Positions 14,682 to 23,280 of a stretch of 44,724 bases of DNA are shown in pieces. Position numbers and translations under genes: made by a program. Origin of the DNA: a phage; the NCBI GenBank assembly GCA_025471175.1, contig GCA_025471175.1_4338.1; one strand, 5' to 3'. The first letter of the stretch is position 1; each line of letters begins with the position of its first letter. The notes beneath the pieces were generated by a model that ran no database searches, was not told where the DNA came from, and worked only from the letters and a program-made list of their open reading frames with translations.

Positions 14682-14873
14682 ATGAAACACGAATATGACC
14701 GCAAACCAGCACGTGACATCGTACCGGGCGACATGATTTTCAACGTTAAGACCCGCCAGCCTGTTGCCGTTGATACGGTGTTCGTCGAGTCGAATGGTAA
14801 ACTGGTTATCGAAGATGCGACCGGTAACGTTACGGCGTTCGGGCGTAAAGAGCTGGTGCTGGTGGCGAAATGA
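14682..14873 (+). CDS. hypothetical protein (63 aa)
   Basis: ORF track; downstream of promoter 14620-14648. Confidence 0.45.
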   Translation: MKHEYDRKPARDIVPGDMIFNVKTRQPVAVDTVFVESNGKLVIEDATGNVTAFGRKELVLVAK

Positions 14874-15799
14874 ACTATTACAATGAGTGGGATAAAGGCG
14901 CAGCCGCGTGGCTGCGTGAATTAATAAAACAGGGTCACATACCTTTTGGAGTTGTAGATGAAAGAAGCGTTACAGAAGTTAAGCCAGAAGACCTCGACGG
15001 GTTCACCCAGTGTCATTTTTTCGCTGGTATTGGCGGCTGGCCTCTCGCGCTCAGACTTGCGGGAGTTTCGGAAGATACGCCTATCTGGACGGGAAGCCCG
15101 CCTTGCCAACCGTTTAGCGCGGCAGGAAAGCAACTCGGACAGTTCGACCCGAGACACCTCGCACCTGTGTTCCTCGACCTCATCAGCGAGTGCAGCCCTC
15201 CAGTCCTCTTTGGGGAACAGGTTGCGCCAGCAATTGCAAAATCGTGGATGTGCGATTTACAAGCTCATCTGGAAGGAGAAGACTACGCCGTCGGGTTTGC
15301 TGTACTCCCAGCTTGTAGCATCGGTGCACCGCACAAACGTGACAGACTTTTCTTCGGCGCGTACAACCTGGCCCACACCGGCGGTATCACTGATAACAAA
15401 CGACGTGAACATGCGCAGCACGGACGGCAGGACGAAACCGAACAAACTGGGATGGGCCGCTGCGATGGTGACTTGGCCTACACCGACAGCGAACGACTAC
15501 AGGGGGAGTGGGGAGACAGTGATTCGCAAGGACGGGAAGGACAGGACATTCGACAAGCTGGACTACTCGACGGAGCAGGGGCCGAAAATAACACAACCTA
15601 TTCGCATCACGGCTTCTGGTCAGATGCTGACTGGCTCGGATGCCGGGATGGAAAATTCAGGCCAGTTGAATCCGGCACATTCCCGCTGGCTAATGGGATA
15701 CCCGCCAGAGTGGGACGATTGCGCGGTTACGGCAATGCCATCGTCCCGCAAGTAGCTGCTGAATTTATAAAGGCATTCATGGGGGCGGTAGATGAGTAA
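14870..15799 (+). CDS. DNA (cytosine-5)-methyltransferase
   Basis: FAGIGGW (motif I), [12 protein letters not shown] (motif IV PCQ), LFGEQV (ENV-like motif VI with N to Q), HKRDRLFF (motif VIII), GYGNAIV (motif X). Confidence 0.75.
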
Positions 15800-17216
15800 G
15801 TTTCAAAGGCGTGAATACCAGAAGCTAATGACTTCGTTCATGTTGAAACACCCTCGCTGTAATATTTGGGCTTCGATGGGTGCGGGCAAAAGTTCCGCAA
15901 CGATGTGGGTACTCAACCGCCTGTTTCGCAACGGGCAACTTACAGAAGAGGACCGCGTGTTAATCCTAGCCCCGTTACGTGTTGCGTCCGGCACGTGGCC
16001 CGCAGAACAAACTAAGTGGGGTTTCCCGTGCCTGAGTGTCGTAGATGCAACCGGTTCAGAGAAGCGCCGCATCGCGGCGCTGGAGTCGGACGCTAACGTG
16101 GTGTGCACCAACTACGAAGTTATCGAGTGGCTGATTGACTACTACGGCAAAGACGACTGGCCTTTTACGGTTATCGTTGCCGATGAAAGCACGAAGCTGA
16201 AATCATTCCGTAGCCGTTCAGGTGGAAGCAAGCGCGCAAAGGCGCTAAGTAAAGTTGCGTTCGGTAAGGTTAAGCGTTTTATCAACCTGACCGGTACGCC
16301 GTCACCTAACGGCCTCAAGGACTTGTGGGGGCAGAACTGGTTTATCGACGCTGGCGAGCGCCTCGGTTCTTCATACACTGCGTTCACCGACCGGTGGTTT
16401 AACTCGGTGCAGGAAGGTAAATCGGCTATGGCGCGAAGGTATCGGGTACGCCCGGGCGCGGATAATGAGATTCATCAGAGGATGAAAGACATTAGCCTGA
16501 CGATTGACGCCGCCGAGTGGTTTGGTTGTGAAGCACCTATTATCGTGCCGGTGGAAATTGACCTGCCGAAGAAAGCGCGTCAGGCGTACATAGATATGGA
16601 GGAGAAGCTATTCGCAGAACTGGAAAGTGGGGAAGTTGAAGCGGCTAACGCCGCGGCGAAGACGTCGAAGTGCTTGCAGATTGCATCTGGTGCCGTATAT
16701 GTGTCAGGGCCGGACGGAGAAGCAACGAAAGACTGGGAGAAAGTGCACGACACGAAGCTGGACGCGCTGGAGTCCATTGTTGAAGAGTTGCAGGGTGCGC
16801 CGTTACTGGTGGCCTATCAGTTCAAGCATGAGCTTGAGCGCATCCTGAAACGTTTCCCGCAGGCACAGGCGTTTGCCAAAGGGGCCAAGGGTAATAAGCA
16901 GATGGAAGCGTGGAACCGCGGTGAAATCGAGATTTTGTGCGTGCATCCCGCATCAGCCGGCCATGGTTTGAATTTACAGGACGGCGGCCATCATCTGGCG
17001 TTCATCTCGCAAGGCTGGAACCTTGAGCACTATTTGCAGGTCGTGGAGCGTATAGGTCCGGTCCGCCAGAAACAGGCAGGCCACGAACGACCGGTGTTCC
17101 TTTATCACATCGTTGCTAAAGACACGCTGGACGAGGTTGTTGCCGCGCGTACCGACGAGAAGAAAACGGTGCAGGAAGAGTTGCTTAATTACATGAAGAG
17201 ACGAGGTAAGAAATGA
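15792..17216 (+). CDS. SNF2-family helicase
   Basis: Walker A ASMGAGKSSAT, DEST box, C-terminal helicase motifs. Confidence 0.75.
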   Translation: MSKFQRREYQKLMTSFMLKHPRCNIWASMGAGKSSATMWVLNRLFRNGQLTEEDRVLILAPLRVASGTWPAEQTKWGFPCLSVVDATGSEKRRIAALESDANVVCTNYEVIEWLIDYYGKDDWPFTVIVADESTKLKSFRSRSGGSKRAKALSKVAFGKVKRFINLTGTPSPNGLKDLWGQNWFIDAGERLGSSYTAFTDRWFNSVQEGKSAMARRYRVRPGADNEIHQRMKDISLTIDAAEWFGCEAPIIVPVEIDLPKKARQAYIDMEEKLFAELESGEVEAANAAAKTSKCLQIASGAVYVSGPDGEATKDWEKVHDTKLDALESIVEELQGAPLLVAYQFKHELERILKRFPQAQAFAKGAKGNKQMEAWNRGEIEILCVHPASAGHGLNLQDGGHHLAFISQGWNLEHYLQVVERIGPVRQKQAGHERPVFLYHIVAKDTLDEVVAARTDEKKTVQEELLNYMKRRGKK

Positions 17217-17582: not shown

Positions 17583-17613
17583 AAAAGGCCCCGTTTGGGG
17601 CCTTAGTTTTATT
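17583..17613. terminator. bidirectional rho-independent terminator
   Basis: aggcccc-gttt-ggggcct hairpin flanked by A-run and T-run; between convergent genes. Confidence 0.6.
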
Positions 17614-20356
17614 TGGCTTCTAGCGCCGTTAGTCTTGCTTCGTGGTCGTCAACCTTGGCTGCAAGAGCGCGTAGGCACCACCAGGTCAACTCCTCTTTTC
17701 TGAATGAGTACAGTTCACCTGCTTCACGGCCCTCGACAGTGATATTGCCACCATCGTCCCGCTCTTCTTCAACAGCTTCCCACTTATCAAAACAGAATGC
17801 ACCGTACAAAGTCCAGTCAAGATTGTTAGCTGTCATTATAGCGATTGCGGCTTGAACTGTTGGGCCCGCGTGCAGACGGGCGTTATCCCCCTCCGACTGA
17901 TAACGCTCCAACCATTGCCATACGCCCGGTAGCCGCAGTATCGATGAAAACGCGGACACTTCATCAGGTGTGATGTCGCGCGGTGCCGTTTTCATCGTAG
18001 CGTCGGATGTGCTGATCGTGCCGTTTACCGCATAAATAGTCGTCCAGCGCGATGCTGGCTGCCCGAGCGCAAGGACGTTGTCGGATGTAGGTGCTAATTT
18101 CGCGGCGTCTACGAGCGCCCAGTATGTACTTTTGCTGCCGAAGCGAACCCGCAAGCCAGATAACAGGTTAAGGGCGCCGGCTGCACTCTGAACATTCGCA
18201 TCGCCTGAAGTTGGGCCGAGAAACACAAACTTACCAGTGTACGGAGATATGCGCACATGGCCTTTTTCAGAGACAAGTCTAGTTCCACTATCCGCTTGTT
18301 CCGGGAGCGCTTTATGGTCTATATAACTATCTCTTGGATTGAATACACCGCCAGTAGTTGTGTATCGACCGCCTGTGTAAGTTGTATATTCTGGACCCCA
18401 ATCAACCCCGTTCCCCTCGGTGCAGCCAATCATCCGCAATACGCGAGTATTCCCGGCGGCATAAGGCAGCGAACTTGTTGACTGGCGAGACGCGATCATG
18501 CGGGCACCGTAGCCAAATGAGGAATTCCCCCCACCAACTGTCTGGTAAGGGATCTGGCTCTCAAAGTAGGTGCTGTAAAAGTTCATGTTCCCGCAATCAT
18601 GCATGTGAACAAGAACATCGTCCCATCCCTGAATAGTCCCTGCATGAACCTGAACACCTCGCACTGGCTCGCCGGATACTTCCATGCATTCCGATGGGCG
18701 GCTAAATGGTTGAGACAGGTATTGCGATGTGGCAAGCAGATGTGTGTGGTGATACAGGCTGGTAATGTAGCAATCGAAAAATTGCGTTCCCGCCATACCA
18801 AAGTTATCTATGTCATTTCGCCGTATAGTAGAACCTACTGTTGCCTCAGAAGCGTTAGACACTCCAGTAAATACTAACTTATCACCGGATACGGATAATC
18901 CTGAATAAGTGAAATTACTGCCTCCCGATCTTAAAACCCCGGACGTTTCGAAGGTGTGGCTTGATGACCATGGGATTTCGATAGTGCTGGACGTTACCGC
19001 TGTAATTCTGAACACATCATGTGCGCGAATCGAAACGCCTTTGAACCCCTGAAAACGGCAGTGGTAGTAATTTTCATCCTCACCCTGTGCAGCCGGGGTG
19101 CCAGATACAGGTATATTTGTTTTTAAAAGTGCCGCTTTTCGCCAGTAACCAACCACCTGCAAATTGCGATATTCGTTGCCGAATGATGCCCGTGACCAGA
19201 TTCCTACATCCCACTCATCGCCCAGCCCGGTATTTGCAATGTCTTTATAACCGTCCAGCCCGTTGAAATAGGGAACAATGCGGAAGTTTTCCAGACGAAC
19301 ACAACCGGTCTCTGGCATCAATATCGCAACAGAGAATGGTTTAAGAGTCGCTCGTGTGGTGCCTGATGCGTCACCATTGGTGAAATCAAGCAGGTCATAC
19401 GACGGCGCTGGAGCAGTTGCCGTGTACGGGTCTGAGGCGGAAGGATTGACTACAACGCCGCCGCTCTTGTCCATATTGGAAACACAATCCAGGGTGTAAT
19501 TTTTAGCCCCAGTACCATACATCAGAAATGTGGTGCCGCTGGTCAGATTGGGGTTAAAGGTGGCAGTAAATCCAGACACCCATTTATTGACACCAAGTCC
19601 GATAATTCCGCCTCCAGAAACTGGAAGCAGCGTATCCGTAATTACGTAGGCATTATCGGCGCCATACACAACTTTTCCGGTGTTTAACGCCGCCTGCCAG
19701 GCGGCCCAGTCGACACTTTGCGTTAAGCTAGTTACGAATGGGTACACGGCCCGTGCGGATGGTAAGGAAGTATAAATTTCAGATAGCGGATGGTACGACC
19801 CATCACCGATGGCCCCAAACTGCTTAACATTAAGGAACAGCGCGTTATTGTCATGCTGAGTAAGGCTTACAGCACCTTGGTATGGTTGAACTACATTGAT
19901 ATTACTGTCGTCGACAAGAGGTCCCGAACTAGCAGTTGCTAATTGCTTGCGTAGAGTAATATCACCCACAGGCCGCCATGCCCCCTCGGCAATACCTCCA
20001 GCCGTTAACGGTGAAGACGCGGCTGGTATAACCTTCGGCAGCGTGCCCTCCCAGTAATACCAGTCACCATCACCACCATCAGCCATAGGCCATAAAACCG
20101 CCTTGTTACGGTCGTTCAGGGTAAGAGTACCGCCAGATGTAAAATCAAAAGACGCTGGTTCGAACCCGATATCGCGCAGAATGGCTGGCATAGTTTTTTG
20201 AACTTGGCCAGTAACCGGGTTAGTCGCATAATCAATATCGGCGCCACCTGCAACACCGCCGGATTTGCCGGTGATAACCTCGGCTTCGAAAATCTGGTGC
20301 TTCTTGGCGGTTTGTAAATCCGCCAGGCTTAAAACGTCACCGCATCCGCTTGACAT
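17609..20356 (-). CDS. tailspike / tail fiber with C-terminal intramolecular chaperone domain
   Basis: 915 aa; N-terminus DGDWYYWEGTLPKVIPAASSPLTAGGIAEGAW resembles the K1F endosialidase-type anchor; C-terminal STSDATMKTAPRD fits the S74 self-cleaving chaperone pattern; central part repetitive. Confidence 0.8.
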   Translation of the reverse strand: MSSGCGDVLSLADLQTAKKHQIFEAEVITGKSGGVAGGADIDYATNPVTGQVQKTMPAILRDIGFEPASFDFTSGGTLTLNDRNKAVLWPMADGGDGDWYYWEGTLPKVIPAASSPLTAGGIAEGAWRPVGDITLRKQLATASSGPLVDDSNINVVQPYQGAVSLTQHDNNALFLNVKQFGAIGDGSYHPLSEIYTSLPSARAVYPFVTSLTQSVDWAAWQAALNTGKVVYGADNAYVITDTLLPVSGGGIIGLGVNKWVSGFTATFNPNLTSGTTFLMYGTGAKNYTLDCVSNMDKSGGVVVNPSASDPYTATAPAPSYDLLDFTNGDASGTTRATLKPFSVAILMPETGCVRLENFRIVPYFNGLDGYKDIANTGLGDEWDVGIWSRASFGNEYRNLQVVGYWRKAALLKTNIPVSGTPAAQGEDENYYHCRFQGFKGVSIRAHDVFRITAVTSSTIEIPWSSSHTFETSGVLRSGGSNFTYSGLSVSGDKLVFTGVSNASEATVGSTIRRNDIDNFGMAGTQFFDCYITSLYHHTHLLATSQYLSQPFSRPSECMEVSGEPVRGVQVHAGTIQGWDDVLVHMHDCGNMNFYSTYFESQIPYQTVGGGNSSFGYGARMIASRQSTSSLPYAAGNTRVLRMIGCTEGNGVDWGPEYTTYTGGRYTTTGGVFNPRDSYIDHKALPEQADSGTRLVSEKGHVRISPYTGKFVFLGPTSGDANVQSAAGALNLLSGLRVRFGSKSTYWALVDAAKLAPTSDNVLALGQPASRWTTIYAVNGTISTSDATMKTAPRDITPDEVSAFSSILRLPGVWQWLERYQSEGDNARLHAGPTVQAAIAIMTANNLDWTLYGAFCFDKWEAVEEERDDGGNITVEGREAGELYSFRKEELTWWCLRALAAKVDDHEARLTALEAK

Positions 20357-20368
20357 ATAGAGTCCTCT

Positions 20369-22999
20369 TTAATTAAAACCATCGCTGAATCCGTCGGAGA
20401 AACCGCTGCCGTATGGCGCGACGCCGTCGTATTTATAGAAATCTGCTTCATAGTTAATCCCGGTAATCTTAACCGTTCTGTCGTCTCCGGGGCCAACTGT
20501 AGAAACAAGAATCATCTGAGCATTATGCCTTGCTTCGTTACCGAATGAAAACTCAGTTTTTAGTGCGCTATTCCCTGTGTATATCGCCTCTTGAGGCGCA
20601 GAGAGCATAACCACTTCACGGTCGTGGCTTCCAGGCACAACAGCAACACTTTGAACTCCGCCGTCTCTCTTCTTAAGAATCAGTGAGTGGTCATCCCCCG
20701 GAGTAAACGTAACCGGCTGAGAAAGAATAAGGGTAAGCCCATTAACGGCAACGACATAACCATCTTGAGGTGCTACTCGCGAGCCTTTAACTACGCTTAT
20801 TGCCCGTCCTGGAAGCACAAAAACCCCTTCTTCTGTCGCCGTGAATGATACCGTCACCTTCTTCAACAGGTTCTTCTGGTACCGACGGTACGCCGCCCAG
20901 TACGCCTGACGATAATTACGTATACCTTTAGAGTCATACGTTTCTGTGTTAACACCACCCTCGGCGGGAATGCTGATGGTCTCTTTTACGTTAGTATCTG
21001 GGTCGATGTAGGAGAACTTAAGACTATCGTATACCTGAGCGTCGTTGAATGTGCGCGTCCACTTTTCCGAAGCTGTTGTCTTACTTCGATGTGTGAATAC
21101 CATTTCCGGCCCCATACGCGGGCGCTCGAAATCCAGTAATATGTCTTGCCCTTTACGATATGGAGTGCAGAAAATAGCATCGGCTATTGTGCTGATGATA
21201 TCCTGCATGGTCATTTTATAGTCGTCAAAAGTGTAGCAGAATTGACCCGCCTCCACGTTACCGAAATAATTCTCAATCTCGGTCTGAGTCGCTAACAACT
21301 TGTCCATATTGGATGTTGTTAGGTTGAGATTACCTACTACCGGGTCACGGGCGAGACGTATTAATGATTGAATGGCCTGAGTATTCGGTGTCATTACGGT
21401 GTCGAATACACCATTACCGAGGTATTTGTACACCATCTCTGTGGCGACCATACGTAACTGTGGTTGCTTAATCTCTGCGGCCCGCGGCGTCTGCTTACGT
21501 GCCGAGTGTACGGTGGTACGATTGCCGTAATGTGGCGTAGTGTCACGGACCTGACCGTAAAGGTTGATATAGGAAACCTCGTCTACCACGGTGCCCTCGA
21601 AATCAAGGTCCAGGTTGGTAACACGACGGGCACGTACCTTAACTTTCGACCTCATGGGCAAGTCGGCGTAAATAGTAACTCCGGTGTAGTCGGCGGACCG
21701 ACCAGATATAACGGCCTGTTTTGAATAGATACTCCCGTATGGGGCACCGGTTTCATCGAGTAGTTGGTATTGGAGTTCAATAGTTACCGACGTACGCAAT
21801 TTACTGCCGTTGTCTTTATACATACCGTTAGCGGCAGCGATGTTGGCTACCACGCGTTCAACTTCCAGGCGGTTTAAGGTGGTCCAGTCGGTTAATGTTC
21901 TTTCATACGTATCCACGGGGCCTACCCACGTGTCACTTCTCTGGGAAAGTGAATAGGTGGTTGAGCCTAAAGCAGCCCAATTAGACGCGCCGCCGGTGTC
22001 GACCCGCAGCTCGAAGTTATCGACATAAAGAACACGAAAGTTGCCGTTGGTATTTGTTACGTCCGGAACGTCAAAGTTATTGAACGACGCGGTGTCACCA
22101 ACAGATAATATTTCCGCGAAGCCAGAATCCCCCGTGTCGTCATACAGGTATCCAATTTTTGTAGCAGAGTCATATCTCACGCGGCCCGTGTCGCTTGGGT
22201 TGACCCGAATATCGTTCTGGGCTTTAAGAACGGCTCCATCTACTTCATTAGACGCGATAGTTATATAAAGATTCTGATTGATAGGTTCCCCCACCAGAAG
22301 CTGCGGGGTATTTGTATTGTTGGGGGATGTAAACGGCGCGTACACCGCGACAGAGGTCCCCGTAATCTCCTGTACCTTAGTATCGCCGTCGGTAATATCT
22401 TCGGCCTTGATGTCCAGATACCCACGACCGGCATCGTAGTATCCGTATTCAATAATGCGACCAGATTCATCGAATATTTTATAGGTAGTCATGAGGTCAT
22501 TAGGGATGGTCTGGACTTTGCCGCAAATATCATACGACCGTTCATATGGACGGGGTTTATTGTTTCGGTCCGTCAGGCTGTTGTTGGGGGACTCAGCCTG
22601 CTGGTTCGCTAAACTCGTTTTAGGCGTTTTCTGCGACGGAGAAATCAACTTGGTAACAAATTTAAGCACACCCAAAGGGTCCAGGAGTTTACCCAGAAAA
22701 CCGCCACCGCCACCAGCGCCTTCGATAATATGGAAAACATCGTCTTCTTTCAGCGCTTCGAAATCTTCAGTTACTTCCATGTCCTCGCCGATCTCGCCAC
22801 GGTAAATACGTACAGGCACCCCGTCGGGGATGTTAGCGACGACGTATTCCATCGGCGGTACGTTGTGCCGTTCGCGGTCGAAAGTACCGTCTTCGTTACG
22901 GGTGTAATGTAATGTCAGCGCCAAAATTCTATCTCCGCATAAGTTTCGCGCAAGTCTTCCAGACGGTCTAACCGTACCTGGCGACTCGCCAGCTCGCAA
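20369..22999 (-). CDS. tail tip / host specificity protein (J-like)
   Basis: 876 aa between NlpC/P60 tail-tip gene and tailspike; N-terminal boundary uncertain (track start overlaps upstream gene by 85 nt). Confidence 0.5.
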   Translation of the reverse strand: MRAGESPGTVRPSGRLARNLCGDRILALTLHYTRNEDGTFDRERHNVPPMEYVVANIPDGVPVRIYRGEIGEDMEVTEDFEALKEDDVFHIIEGAGGGGGFLGKLLDPLGVLKFVTKLISPSQKTPKTSLANQQAESPNNSLTDRNNKPRPYERSYDICGKVQTIPNDLMTTYKIFDESGRIIEYGYYDAGRGYLDIKAEDITDGDTKVQEITGTSVAVYAPFTSPNNTNTPQLLVGEPINQNLYITIASNEVDGAVLKAQNDIRVNPSDTGRVRYDSATKIGYLYDDTGDSGFAEILSVGDTASFNNFDVPDVTNTNGNFRVLYVDNFELRVDTGGASNWAALGSTTYSLSQRSDTWVGPVDTYERTLTDWTTLNRLEVERVVANIAAANGMYKDNGSKLRTSVTIELQYQLLDETGAPYGSIYSKQAVISGRSADYTGVTIYADLPMRSKVKVRARRVTNLDLDFEGTVVDEVSYINLYGQVRDTTPHYGNRTTVHSARKQTPRAAEIKQPQLRMVATEMVYKYLGNGVFDTVMTPNTQAIQSLIRLARDPVVGNLNLTTSNMDKLLATQTEIENYFGNVEAGQFCYTFDDYKMTMQDIISTIADAIFCTPYRKGQDILLDFERPRMGPEMVFTHRSKTTASEKWTRTFNDAQVYDSLKFSYIDPDTNVKETISIPAEGGVNTETYDSKGIRNYRQAYWAAYRRYQKNLLKKVTVSFTATEEGVFVLPGRAISVVKGSRVAPQDGYVVAVNGLTLILSQPVTFTPGDDHSLILKKRDGGVQSVAVVPGSHDREVVMLSAPQEAIYTGNSALKTEFSFGNEARHNAQMILVSTVGPGDDRTVKITGINYEADFYKYDGVAPYGSGFSDGFSDGFN

Positions 23000-23280
23000 T
23001 GACTAACCATACCGTCATAGTATACTCCGGCGTGCCAGATTACACGGTTTCTGTGCCGTGTTGCCATCAGCACGGCATCGAAGTTTTGCGGAGTTTCTAC
23101 GCGTACAAGGCCTTTAGTATCTTTATGGCCTTCTTCGAAGGCGTCGTTAATCTGTGTTGGCGAAGCGACGTTAAACTCAGGCGTAAAGAGGCCTACATCC
23201 GCACGAACGTTACGGACATGGTGCCAGCAATTACGACGGCGAAAGTCGTACGGCAACCCTGTATAAGAATTAATATTCAT
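22915..23280 (-). CDS. tail assembly protein with NlpC/P60-like domain (gpK-like)
   Basis: 121 aa; Cys-His-His arrangement (NCWHH...H); ATGA overlap. Confidence 0.5.
   Translation of the reverse strand: MNINSYTGLPYDFRRRNCWHHVRNVRADVGLFTPEFNVASPTQINDAFEEGHKDTKGLVRVETPQNFDAVLMATRHRNRVIWHAGVYYDGMVSHCELASRQVRLDRLEDLRETYAEIEFWR

Follow-up and report, generated by a model that had tools for sequence, protein, structure and literature searches.

The tailspike encoded in a 44,724-nucleotide stretch of phage DNA (the window) combines four or more exchangeable modules in a mosaic: an anchor, a beta-helix, a probable stalk and a chaperone. With this architecture it very probably serves as the phage's single host-recognition and receptor-binding protein. 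The beta-helix may depolymerize the Rib-Kdo capsule of the K13/K20/K23 type, a specificity that is transferred here by sequence from prophage homologues and for which we consider the case evenly balanced. Taken as a whole, a mosaic spike with a capsule target is the best explanation of the data, and we hold it with moderate confidence. The architecture as such is textbook, and the protein is of an ordinary kind. What is new is the proposed receptor, for which a capsule is favoured over an O-antigen.

Gene and genomic context

The window is approximately 92% identical to Kagunavirus genomes and, judged by this sequence, its source is a Kagunavirus-like siphophage of E. coli. An open reading frame running from ATG to stop occupies exactly the interval in which the earlier note had placed a tailspike gene (Table 1). 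Its product matches the PHROG family phrog_1171, annotated as tail spike protein, over residues 6-915 (E=1.7e-168). The gene is the last of the tail module and lies directly downstream of a J-like tail-tip gene, whose stop codon is at 20369-20371. The same order is found in K1H and in the BASEL Kagunavirus phages, and the position after the J-like tail gene has been described for the genus (PMC11990801). The family match and the gene position both bear out the name tailspike, and no second tailspike-type gene is present in the window. Just downstream of the gene, before the convergent plus-strand genes, is a hairpin that is likely a bidirectional terminator.

Table 1. Positions of the tailspike gene, its predicted modules and flanking signals in the window
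Feature	Residues	Position	Strand	Description
GC-rich hairpin		17585..17604	unassigned	8-bp stem with 6 GC pairs; T-runs on both sides
Tailspike gene	1-915	17609..20356	minus	915 aa, 98.4 kDa precursor; stop codon 17609-17611
Peptidase_S74 intramolecular chaperone	784-915	17612..18007	minus	PF13884 and PDB matches
Predicted autocleavage motif SDATMK	S784-K789	17990..18007	minus	Ser-Lys dyad
Probable trimeric stalk	717-783	18008..18208	minus	PF12219 positions 91-160, E=3.8e-5
Receptor-binding and putative depolymerase domain	141-745	18122..19936	minus	right-handed parallel beta-helix
N-terminal anchor	1-140	19937..20356	minus	conserved within Kagunavirus
Tail_spike_N module (PF18668)	78-132	19961-20125	minus	Pfam match above cutoff, E=7e-13
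Shine-Dalgarno AGAGGA		20363..20368	minus	6 nt upstream of the tailspike ATG; sequence read directly

N-terminal anchor

Attachment to the tail tip is presumably the task of the anchor. Over residues 1-139 the tailspike of fBC-Eco01 is 97% identical, and the '63D sialidase' tailspike of K1H is 89% identical over residues 1-70 and 66% identical over residues 71-140. The conserved stretch of roughly 140 N-terminal residues and the gene order are those of the K1G/K1H/63D type of Kagunavirus anchor.

An endosialidase-type anchor resembling that of K1F had been proposed for this protein, and this proposal holds in part. The anchor is common to the endosialidase tailspikes of siphophages K1H and 63D, but the adaptor type of podophage K1F is absent. 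The T7 gp17-type particle adaptor, PF03906, has no Pfam match at E<=1 in the tailspike. With BLASTP, the N-terminal part that aligns to K1F gp17 comprises only residues 85-147 (K1F 168-226, 48% identity), and no alignment is obtained for residues 1-84. We therefore reject a K1F or T7 gp17-type adaptor. What the spike does share with K1F endoNF (gp17) is the Tail_spike_N module in this aligned segment and, at the other end, a probable stalk plus a chaperone whose dyad is in register; both the PF03906 adaptor and the sialidase domain of K1F are missing.

Central beta-helix

A full-length AF2 model built from a shallow alignment of 21 sequences reached a pLDDT of 54.8 and was unusable for residues 533-791. 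It was replaced by a model of residues 160-745 based on a central-domain alignment of 106 sequences, which has a pLDDT of 90.6. By fold comparison, the predicted structure is a beta-helix of the pectin-lyase type, as in phage depolymerases. The middle of the protein had been called repetitive and beta-helix-like, and the model upholds the second of these descriptions. The first is not sustained, since Tandem Repeats Finder detects no repeats in the middle of the tailspike and BLASTP of the tailspike against itself gives no off-diagonal match at E<=10; the repetition is that of the structural helix coils only.

The best structural matches of the model are active depolymerases. Solved beta-helix depolymerases, including CBA120 TSP2 (5w6p), Klebsiella Depo32 (7vz3), phi297 gp27 (4ru5), LKA1 gp49 (4ru4) and the K5 lyase (2x3h), are 9-21% identical to the spike and superpose over about 300 of 586 residues, their substrates differ, and their own catalytic residues do not map onto it. 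In a sequence-profile search of the PDB, matches to solved structures are confined to the first helix coils and the C-terminal domain.

Conserved polar residues of the family include R359, Y370, D383, R444, D447, H536, E559, R566 and E599. They are near-invariant across 106 homologues of approximately 30% identity, and the carboxylates D383, D447, E559 and E599 are conserved at 92-100%. Conservation of 93-100% at several acidic residues and arginines, one histidine and one tyrosine is, at such low family identity, typical of an active site. On the basis of the sequences and the model, the centre most likely cleaves a surface polysaccharide, and its chemistry would be that of a hydrolase. More speculatively, R359, R444 and R566, together with Y370, two glutamates and two aspartates, might make up a sialidase-like site that accommodates a 2-keto-3-deoxy acid sugar on a beta-helix rather than a propeller scaffold.

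The endosialidase tailspikes of the Kagunavirus siphophages K1H, K1G and 63D occupy the same gene position, share the anchor and likewise end in an S74 chaperone (29-37% identity). The centre of K1H, however, is a GH58 sialidase beta-propeller, and residues 141-745 of the present spike have no similarity to K1H. An identity as GH58 endosialidase is rejected, because there is no similarity to the catalytic regions of K1F or K1H and the centre is a beta-helix, not a six-bladed beta-propeller.

Stalk and C-terminal chaperone

The segment between helix and chaperone is probably an endosialidase-type stalk, although the sequence match is borderline: the C-terminal stalk part of PF12219 (End_tail_spike) scores 24.3 bits, just below the cutoff of 25. 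Alignments to 7y5s and 9vvr begin at tailspike residues ~729-741, and the pLDDT of the monomer model is low in the stalk region.

A chaperone region with an S-D-x-x-x-K motif had been noticed earlier, and this assignment is well founded. PF13884 matches residues 784-843 above its cutoff (E=8.8e-8; 32.8 bits, cutoff 22), and a PDB sequence search recovers the chaperone domains of K1F, T5, phi29 and Kp7 (7y5s, E=8e-29; 4uw8, E=3e-21; 3gw6, the K1F chaperone, E=2e-10; and 3gud, phi29 gp12). The motif occurs once in the tailspike. In a gap-free alignment, S784 corresponds to K1F S911 and K789 to K1F K916, and the dyad is in the same register in 7y5s and in T5 pb1 (4uw8). Autocleavage is thus predicted between T783 and S784, and release of the chaperone is predicted to yield a 14.9 kDa fragment and a mature spike of 83.6 kDa.

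Related spikes and the capsule locus

The tail fibre of Kayfunavirus YZ1 carries the same beta-helix and is 71% identical across residues 72-898, which make up 90% of the protein. For the YZ1 subtype of receptor-binding proteins, Pas et al. 2023 (PMC10408124) set minima of 30% identity and 60% coverage, and the present tailspike is a member of it by this identity. So are two E. coli prophage tailspikes of 991 and 901 amino acids, which have the same beta-helix. The modules around the helix differ: in YZ1 and the prophage spikes, this core follows N-terminal anchors of the T7 type, the P22 head-binding type and other kinds, and their chaperone modules are at most 33% identical to that of the present spike. 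Within the core, identity to the E. coli prophage spikes P0018 and P0019 is 88-98% over residues 216-600 and only 66-67% over residues 601-745.

Among 5426 complete E. coli genomes, 15 contain prophage spikes with a homologous core, and 65 contain krkA, the polymerase gene of the K13/K20/K23 capsule. The two coincide in 11 of the 15 spike-bearing genomes against an expected overlap of 0.18 (p=4e-19), a value that overstates the evidence because the genomes are not phylogenetically independent. The association is seen in both prophage types (8 of 11 genomes with the 991-aa type and 3 of 4 with the P22-like type) and in both kps variants. The identity of krkA was checked through WP_001336789 of NCTC9022 (PMC12887879), to which the protein of strain YDC107 is 95.7% identical. 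The four spike hosts that lack krkA are XH992, LS45, 23CRST013 and OZ547246. Of these, XH992 and LS45 share a different kps region 2 with glf, ugd and two GT2 genes, and 23CRST013 has only the ugd and GT2 segment in common with them. Region 2 of kps is often exchanged (PMC13171606), and such exchange would explain resident prophages in strains whose capsule has been switched.

The earlier note had given the gene a role in setting specificity for the host capsule or O-antigen. The module-swapping pattern and the association with a capsule locus fit such a role; between the two glycans, the capsule is favoured.

Alternative explanations

Most characterized tailspikes of Kagunavirus, Jerseyvirus and P22-like phages are specific for O-antigen, and the present spike might likewise be so and cleave one E. 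coli O polysaccharide. BASEL Kagunavirus isolates need the O16 O-antigen, a dependence conferred by tailspikes encoded at the corresponding locus (PMC11990801), P22-like prophages usually have O-specific spikes (PMC10408124), and the closest solved folds include the O-antigen-specific spikes CBA120 TSP2, LKA1 gp49 and Sf6. However, spikes that share 95% identity or more with the YZ1 subtype are spread over O102, O6, O1 and O153 strains, and Pas et al., who could assign no O group to this subtype, suggested a K antigen as a possible receptor (PMC10408124). As an indication of lineage independence, among the 60 of 107 O102 genomes listed, the O102 strain YDC107 is the only one with the spike, and several others carry different capsule loci. 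These distributions and the strong krkA association make an O-antigen target unlikely. The target could instead be another surface glycan, such as the capsule that XH992 and LS45 have in common or yet another K type, if the link to krkA is partly a lineage artefact or if the specificity of this copy has drifted. The krkA-negative hosts, two of them with a common alternative region 2, would agree with this, as would residues 601-745, a third of which are not the same as in the prophage spikes; point changes, moreover, can retarget receptor-binding proteins, as discussed in PMC10408124. Against it, the enrichment appears separately in each of the two prophage types and each of the kps variants, the helix core with all of the conserved polar residues is nearly the same as in the prophage spikes, and region 2 exchange would account for krkA-negative hosts as capsule switchers. 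Another glycan is rather improbable as well.

A central domain that acts as a non-enzymatic adhesin, binding glycan without cleaving it, is the least probable of these readings and appears very unlikely. Capsule phages must pass through a thick capsule layer, which argues against mere binding, and both the active depolymerases among the best structural matches and the active-site-like conservation in a family of such low identity point the same way. A depolymerase directed against the Rib-Kdo capsule is the reading that we prefer.

Proposed mode of action

The genus-specific anchor (residues 1-140) would fix a trimer of the spike to the tail tip. The right-handed beta-helix of residues ~160-700 would bind, and most likely cleave, the surface polysaccharide, and residues ~717-783 would form a short intertwined stalk. 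Residues 784-915 would nucleate folding of the trimer and then cleave themselves off through S784 and K789 to leave the 83.6 kDa mature subunit. The polysaccharide would be a group 2 capsule of the K13/K20/K23 type, with the backbone ->3)-beta-Ribf-(1->7)-beta-Kdop-(2->, and its depolymerization by the spike would allow the phage to reach the outer membrane. Altmann and colleagues reportedly described a beta-Kdo-cleaving phage glycanase in 1986.

Implications

A depolymerase for the K20 capsule, which belongs to the substrate class proposed here, has been documented biochemically for coliphage PhiK20 (Nimmich 1991, as cited in PMC7344395). This activity is known only from biochemistry, and spikes of the YZ1 type may be the proteins responsible. 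We found no sequence for the PhiK20 depolymerase in the literature, and literature searches gave no sequenced depolymerase from a K13 or K20 phage. It is a tentative proposal, held with slightly less than even confidence, that this spike, YZ1 and the prophage relatives are the first sequence-defined depolymerases of the K13/K20/K23 Rib-Kdo capsule and represent the genes behind PhiK20-type activities.

The K13_K23 capsule is one of those with the strongest link to invasive disease (PMC13171606), and capsule-specific tailspike reagents are available essentially only for K1 and K5 (bioRxiv 10.1101/2025.01.29.635457), so a spike specific for K13/K20/K23 would be useful. If the proposal is correct, such a spike could find use in capsule typing, in assays of capsule expression and as an anti-virulence enzyme, and it would represent a new glycosidase specificity for a polymer of beta-Kdo and ribofuranose. 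For a spike subtype that is widespread in E. coli and whose receptor has been left open in the literature, there is now a concrete and testable receptor candidate.

Architecture of the tailspike

The tailspike gene, a single open reading frame exactly where the earlier note placed it, lies directly after a J-like tail-tip gene. The K1H tailspike occupies the same position, which has been described for the genus Kagunavirus (PMC11990801). Without the tailspike, the window has about 92% DNA identity to E. coli Kagunavirus (Guernseyvirinae) siphophages, among them Ivi, fFiEco03 and fBC-Eco01. The window probably represents an entire phage genome. No second receptor-binding protein is apparent among the other window ORFs of at least 250 aa. 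The hairpin beyond the tailspike gene is likely a bidirectional terminator at the border of the structural and replication modules.

Features of the tailspike region, and the capsule region of strain XH992
Feature	Position	Strand	Description
Tailspike ORF	17609-20356	minus	915 aa, ATG to stop
Ribosome-binding site	6 nt upstream of tailspike ORF	minus	AGAGGA, adjoining the stop codon of the gene before it
GC-rich hairpin	17585-17604		Perfect 8 bp, T-runs on both strands; between the tailspike gene and convergent plus-strand helicase/small-ORF genes
J-like tail-tip gene	20369-22999	minus	Upstream neighbour of the tailspike gene
DNA methyltransferase (phrog_363) and SNF2-type helicase (phrog_62)	14870-17216	plus	Both converge on the tailspike gene
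XH992 kps region 2	NZ_CP019392.1 1711733-1721904		Two 580-aa hypothetical proteins, two GT2 genes, glf, acyltransferase, ugd

The J-like gene is listed with a TTG start at 22999, giving an 85-nt overlap with the upstream gene (22915-23280). The PHROG match of its protein begins only at residue 26, and its K1H homologue is 851 aa long; translation probably starts some 25 codons downstream of the TTG, near 22924. The J-like protein ends in a GFSDGFSDGF repeat. A 265-aa ORF (14958-15755) in another frame is probably spurious, as it lies entirely within the gene for the methyltransferase.

The N-terminal anchor contains a Tail_spike_N domain (PF18668) at residues 78-132 (Pfam, E=7e-13, above the curated cutoff). 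Residues 1-201 are 60% identical to the K1H "63D sialidase" tailspike by BLASTP (89% over residues 1-70 and 66% over 71-140), and residues 1-139 are 97% identical to the fBC-Eco01 spike, which is unrelated past that point. Because the BLASTP alignment with K1F gp17 is confined to residues 85-147 (48%, the PF18668 module) and the C-terminus, and a Pfam search gave no signal for the T7-type adaptor PF03906 in the tailspike, the anchor is, judged by its sequence, that of the genus Kagunavirus and not the K1F/T7 adaptor. The earlier attribution to K1F is thus wrong, and "endosialidase-type" is true solely in the sense that the anchor is common to Kagunavirus endosialidase phages such as K1H.

The tailspike has a single S-D-x-x-x-K motif (SDATMK, residues 784-789) and falls among S74-domain proteins (Peptidase_S74, PF13884, residues 784-843; Pfam E=9e-8, above the curated cutoff). 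The closest solved relatives of the C-terminus are intramolecular chaperone domains, namely those of Klebsiella phage Kp7 gp51 (7y5s, E=8e-29), T5 pb1 (4uw8), K1F endoNF (3gw6) and phi29 gp12 (3gud). Alignment with K1F without gaps places S784 on S911 and K789 on K916, the catalytic dyad for self-cleavage in endoNF. The proposal that this region is a chaperone is supported. The predicted cut before S784 would yield a mature chain of 83.6 kDa and a freed fragment of 14.9 kDa. The probable stalk (residues 717-783) scores 24.3 bits against the section of the endosialidase End_tail_spike model (Pfam) that covers the stalk, just under the cutoff of 25.

The whole protein is assigned to PHROG "tail spike protein" families, in line with its proposed identity, and residues 214-741 fall in a family of unknown function. 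The middle had been called repetitive, but TRF found no repeats and self-BLASTP gave no off-diagonal match. Solved structures are recognisable by sequence for the first coils alone. The first full-length AF2 model, from a shallow alignment, was poor (pLDDT 54.8). Exhaustive HMMER searching finds 1434 family representatives at E<=1e-3, of which 168 reach E<=1e-30, and a second model was built from an alignment of 106 family sequences; AF2 of residues 160-745, a check that the earlier note had suggested, gives pLDDT 90.6 and pTM 0.90.

Residues R359, Y370, D383, R444, D447, H536, E559, R566 and E599 are 92-100% conserved across the 106 homologues, which are about 30% identical to the query, and E599 is invariant. 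Conservation of these polar residues speaks for an enzyme and against a passive fibre. With three arginines, one tyrosine and two each of glutamate and aspartate, the set, within residues 359-599, is reminiscent of the active sites of sialidases. The resemblance would be intriguing should the substrate prove to be Kdo, a sugar similar to sialic acid. The tailspike lies outside the GH58 endosialidases and belongs to the receptor-binding protein (RBP) subtype of the Kayfunavirus YZ1.

Segment-wise identities reveal at least four modules of differing history. Residues 1-140 are nearest to Kagunavirus spikes. Residues 216-400 have as closest relatives the E. coli prophage spikes P0018 and P0019 (88%); the spike of YZ1, which has a T7-type N-terminus, is 92% identical here. 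Residues 401-600 are again nearest to P0018 and P0019 (96-98%; YZ1 84%), and residues 601-745 to the uncultured relative P0009 (91%) and YZ1 (86%; P0018 and P0019 66-67%). Residues 784-915 are nearest to the uncultured P0008 and P0009 (83-96%), with YZ1 and the prophage spikes at 22-30%. The core is also found C-terminal to P22 head-binding domains, as well as in proteins of 1153 aa from contigs of about 72 kb. Horizontal module exchange of this kind has been described by Pas et al. (PMC10408124).

Association with a capsule locus

Prophages of O102, O6, O1 and O153 strains contain spikes with >=95% identity to the YZ1 RBP; a receptor common to these spikes, for instance a K antigen, was proposed and left unidentified (Pas et al., PMC10408124). 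Of 5426 complete E. coli genomes, 15 contain prophage spikes that match the core DNA of the tailspike (window 18130-19800). In one of these, YDC107, the serotype-specific region 2 of the kps capsule locus has two genes only, one for an O-acetyltransferase and one for a "HAD family hydrolase" of 1114 aa. The latter gene is present in 65 of the 5426 genomes, including NCTC9022, whose copy (WP_001336789) is KrkA, the enzyme that alone polymerises the K13/K20/K23 backbone ->3)-beta-Ribf-(1->7)-beta-Kdop-(2-> (PMC12887879). Eleven of the 15 spike-bearing genomes carry krkA, where 0.18 are expected (hypergeometric p=4e-19, an upper bound on the evidence, as genomes are non-independent). The link is present in both prophage types (991-aa type, 8/11; P22-like type, 3/4) and for both kps variants.

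The YDC107 and NCTC9022 polymerases are 95.7% identical and the neighbouring acetyltransferases merely about 40%, so these loci should specify the same backbone with different O-acetylation. This suggests that the krkA locus variant found in 49 genomes forms an O-acetylation type of its own within the K13/K20/K23 group. Differences between the two KrkA proteins are clustered in roughly the final 90 residues. Four of the 15 genomes (SBF22, OZ547246, DLL7555 and 702/18) have two separate spike-core matches each, and thus some strains carry two prophages that share one type of receptor-binding domain.

The exceptions to the krkA link are XH992, LS45, 23CRST013 and OZ547246. XH992 and LS45 have the same prophage spike and a common region 2 of another kind, which occurs at >=80% coverage in 40 genomes; 23CRST013 shares only its ugd and GT2 segment. 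The XH992/LS45 mismatch may reflect capsule switching after lysogeny, or perhaps a second substrate. Strain YDC107 is O102, and among the 60 of 107 O102 genomes listed the spike is in YDC107 only and several have other capsule loci, so the spike is not simply a marker of that clone.

Proposed function

The tailspike probably works like the many known modular beta-helix depolymerases with an S74 chaperone. The chaperone would nucleate assembly of three chains and, by homology, cut itself off between T783 and S784 afterwards. Gene order and genus conservation suggest that the anchor attaches the trimer to the tail tip beside the J-like protein. To judge by its fold, its conserved polar residues and what is known of the genus's biology, the beta-helix would then bind and depolymerise capsule and so give the virion access to the outer membrane. 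Given the prophage association, the K13/K20/K23 Rib-Kdo capsule is the most likely substrate, with about an even chance of being the true one. Our guess is that the chemistry is hydrolytic, the labile bond being a ketosidic Kdo linkage. A phage glycanase cutting beta-Kdo linkages was reportedly described in 1986. A K20 depolymerase is documented on coliphage PhiK20, according to PMC7344395 (citing Nimmich 1991).

The earlier finding is real and its interpretation right in outline, the K1F attribution and the repeats excepted. Its value lies in the capsule inference rather than the architecture. A literature search found no sequenced representative of K13/K20/K23-type capsule depolymerase activity, for which the tailspike is a candidate gene. 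The new element is that the YZ1 spike subtype, whose target the literature had left open, now has a specific receptor assignment that can be tested.
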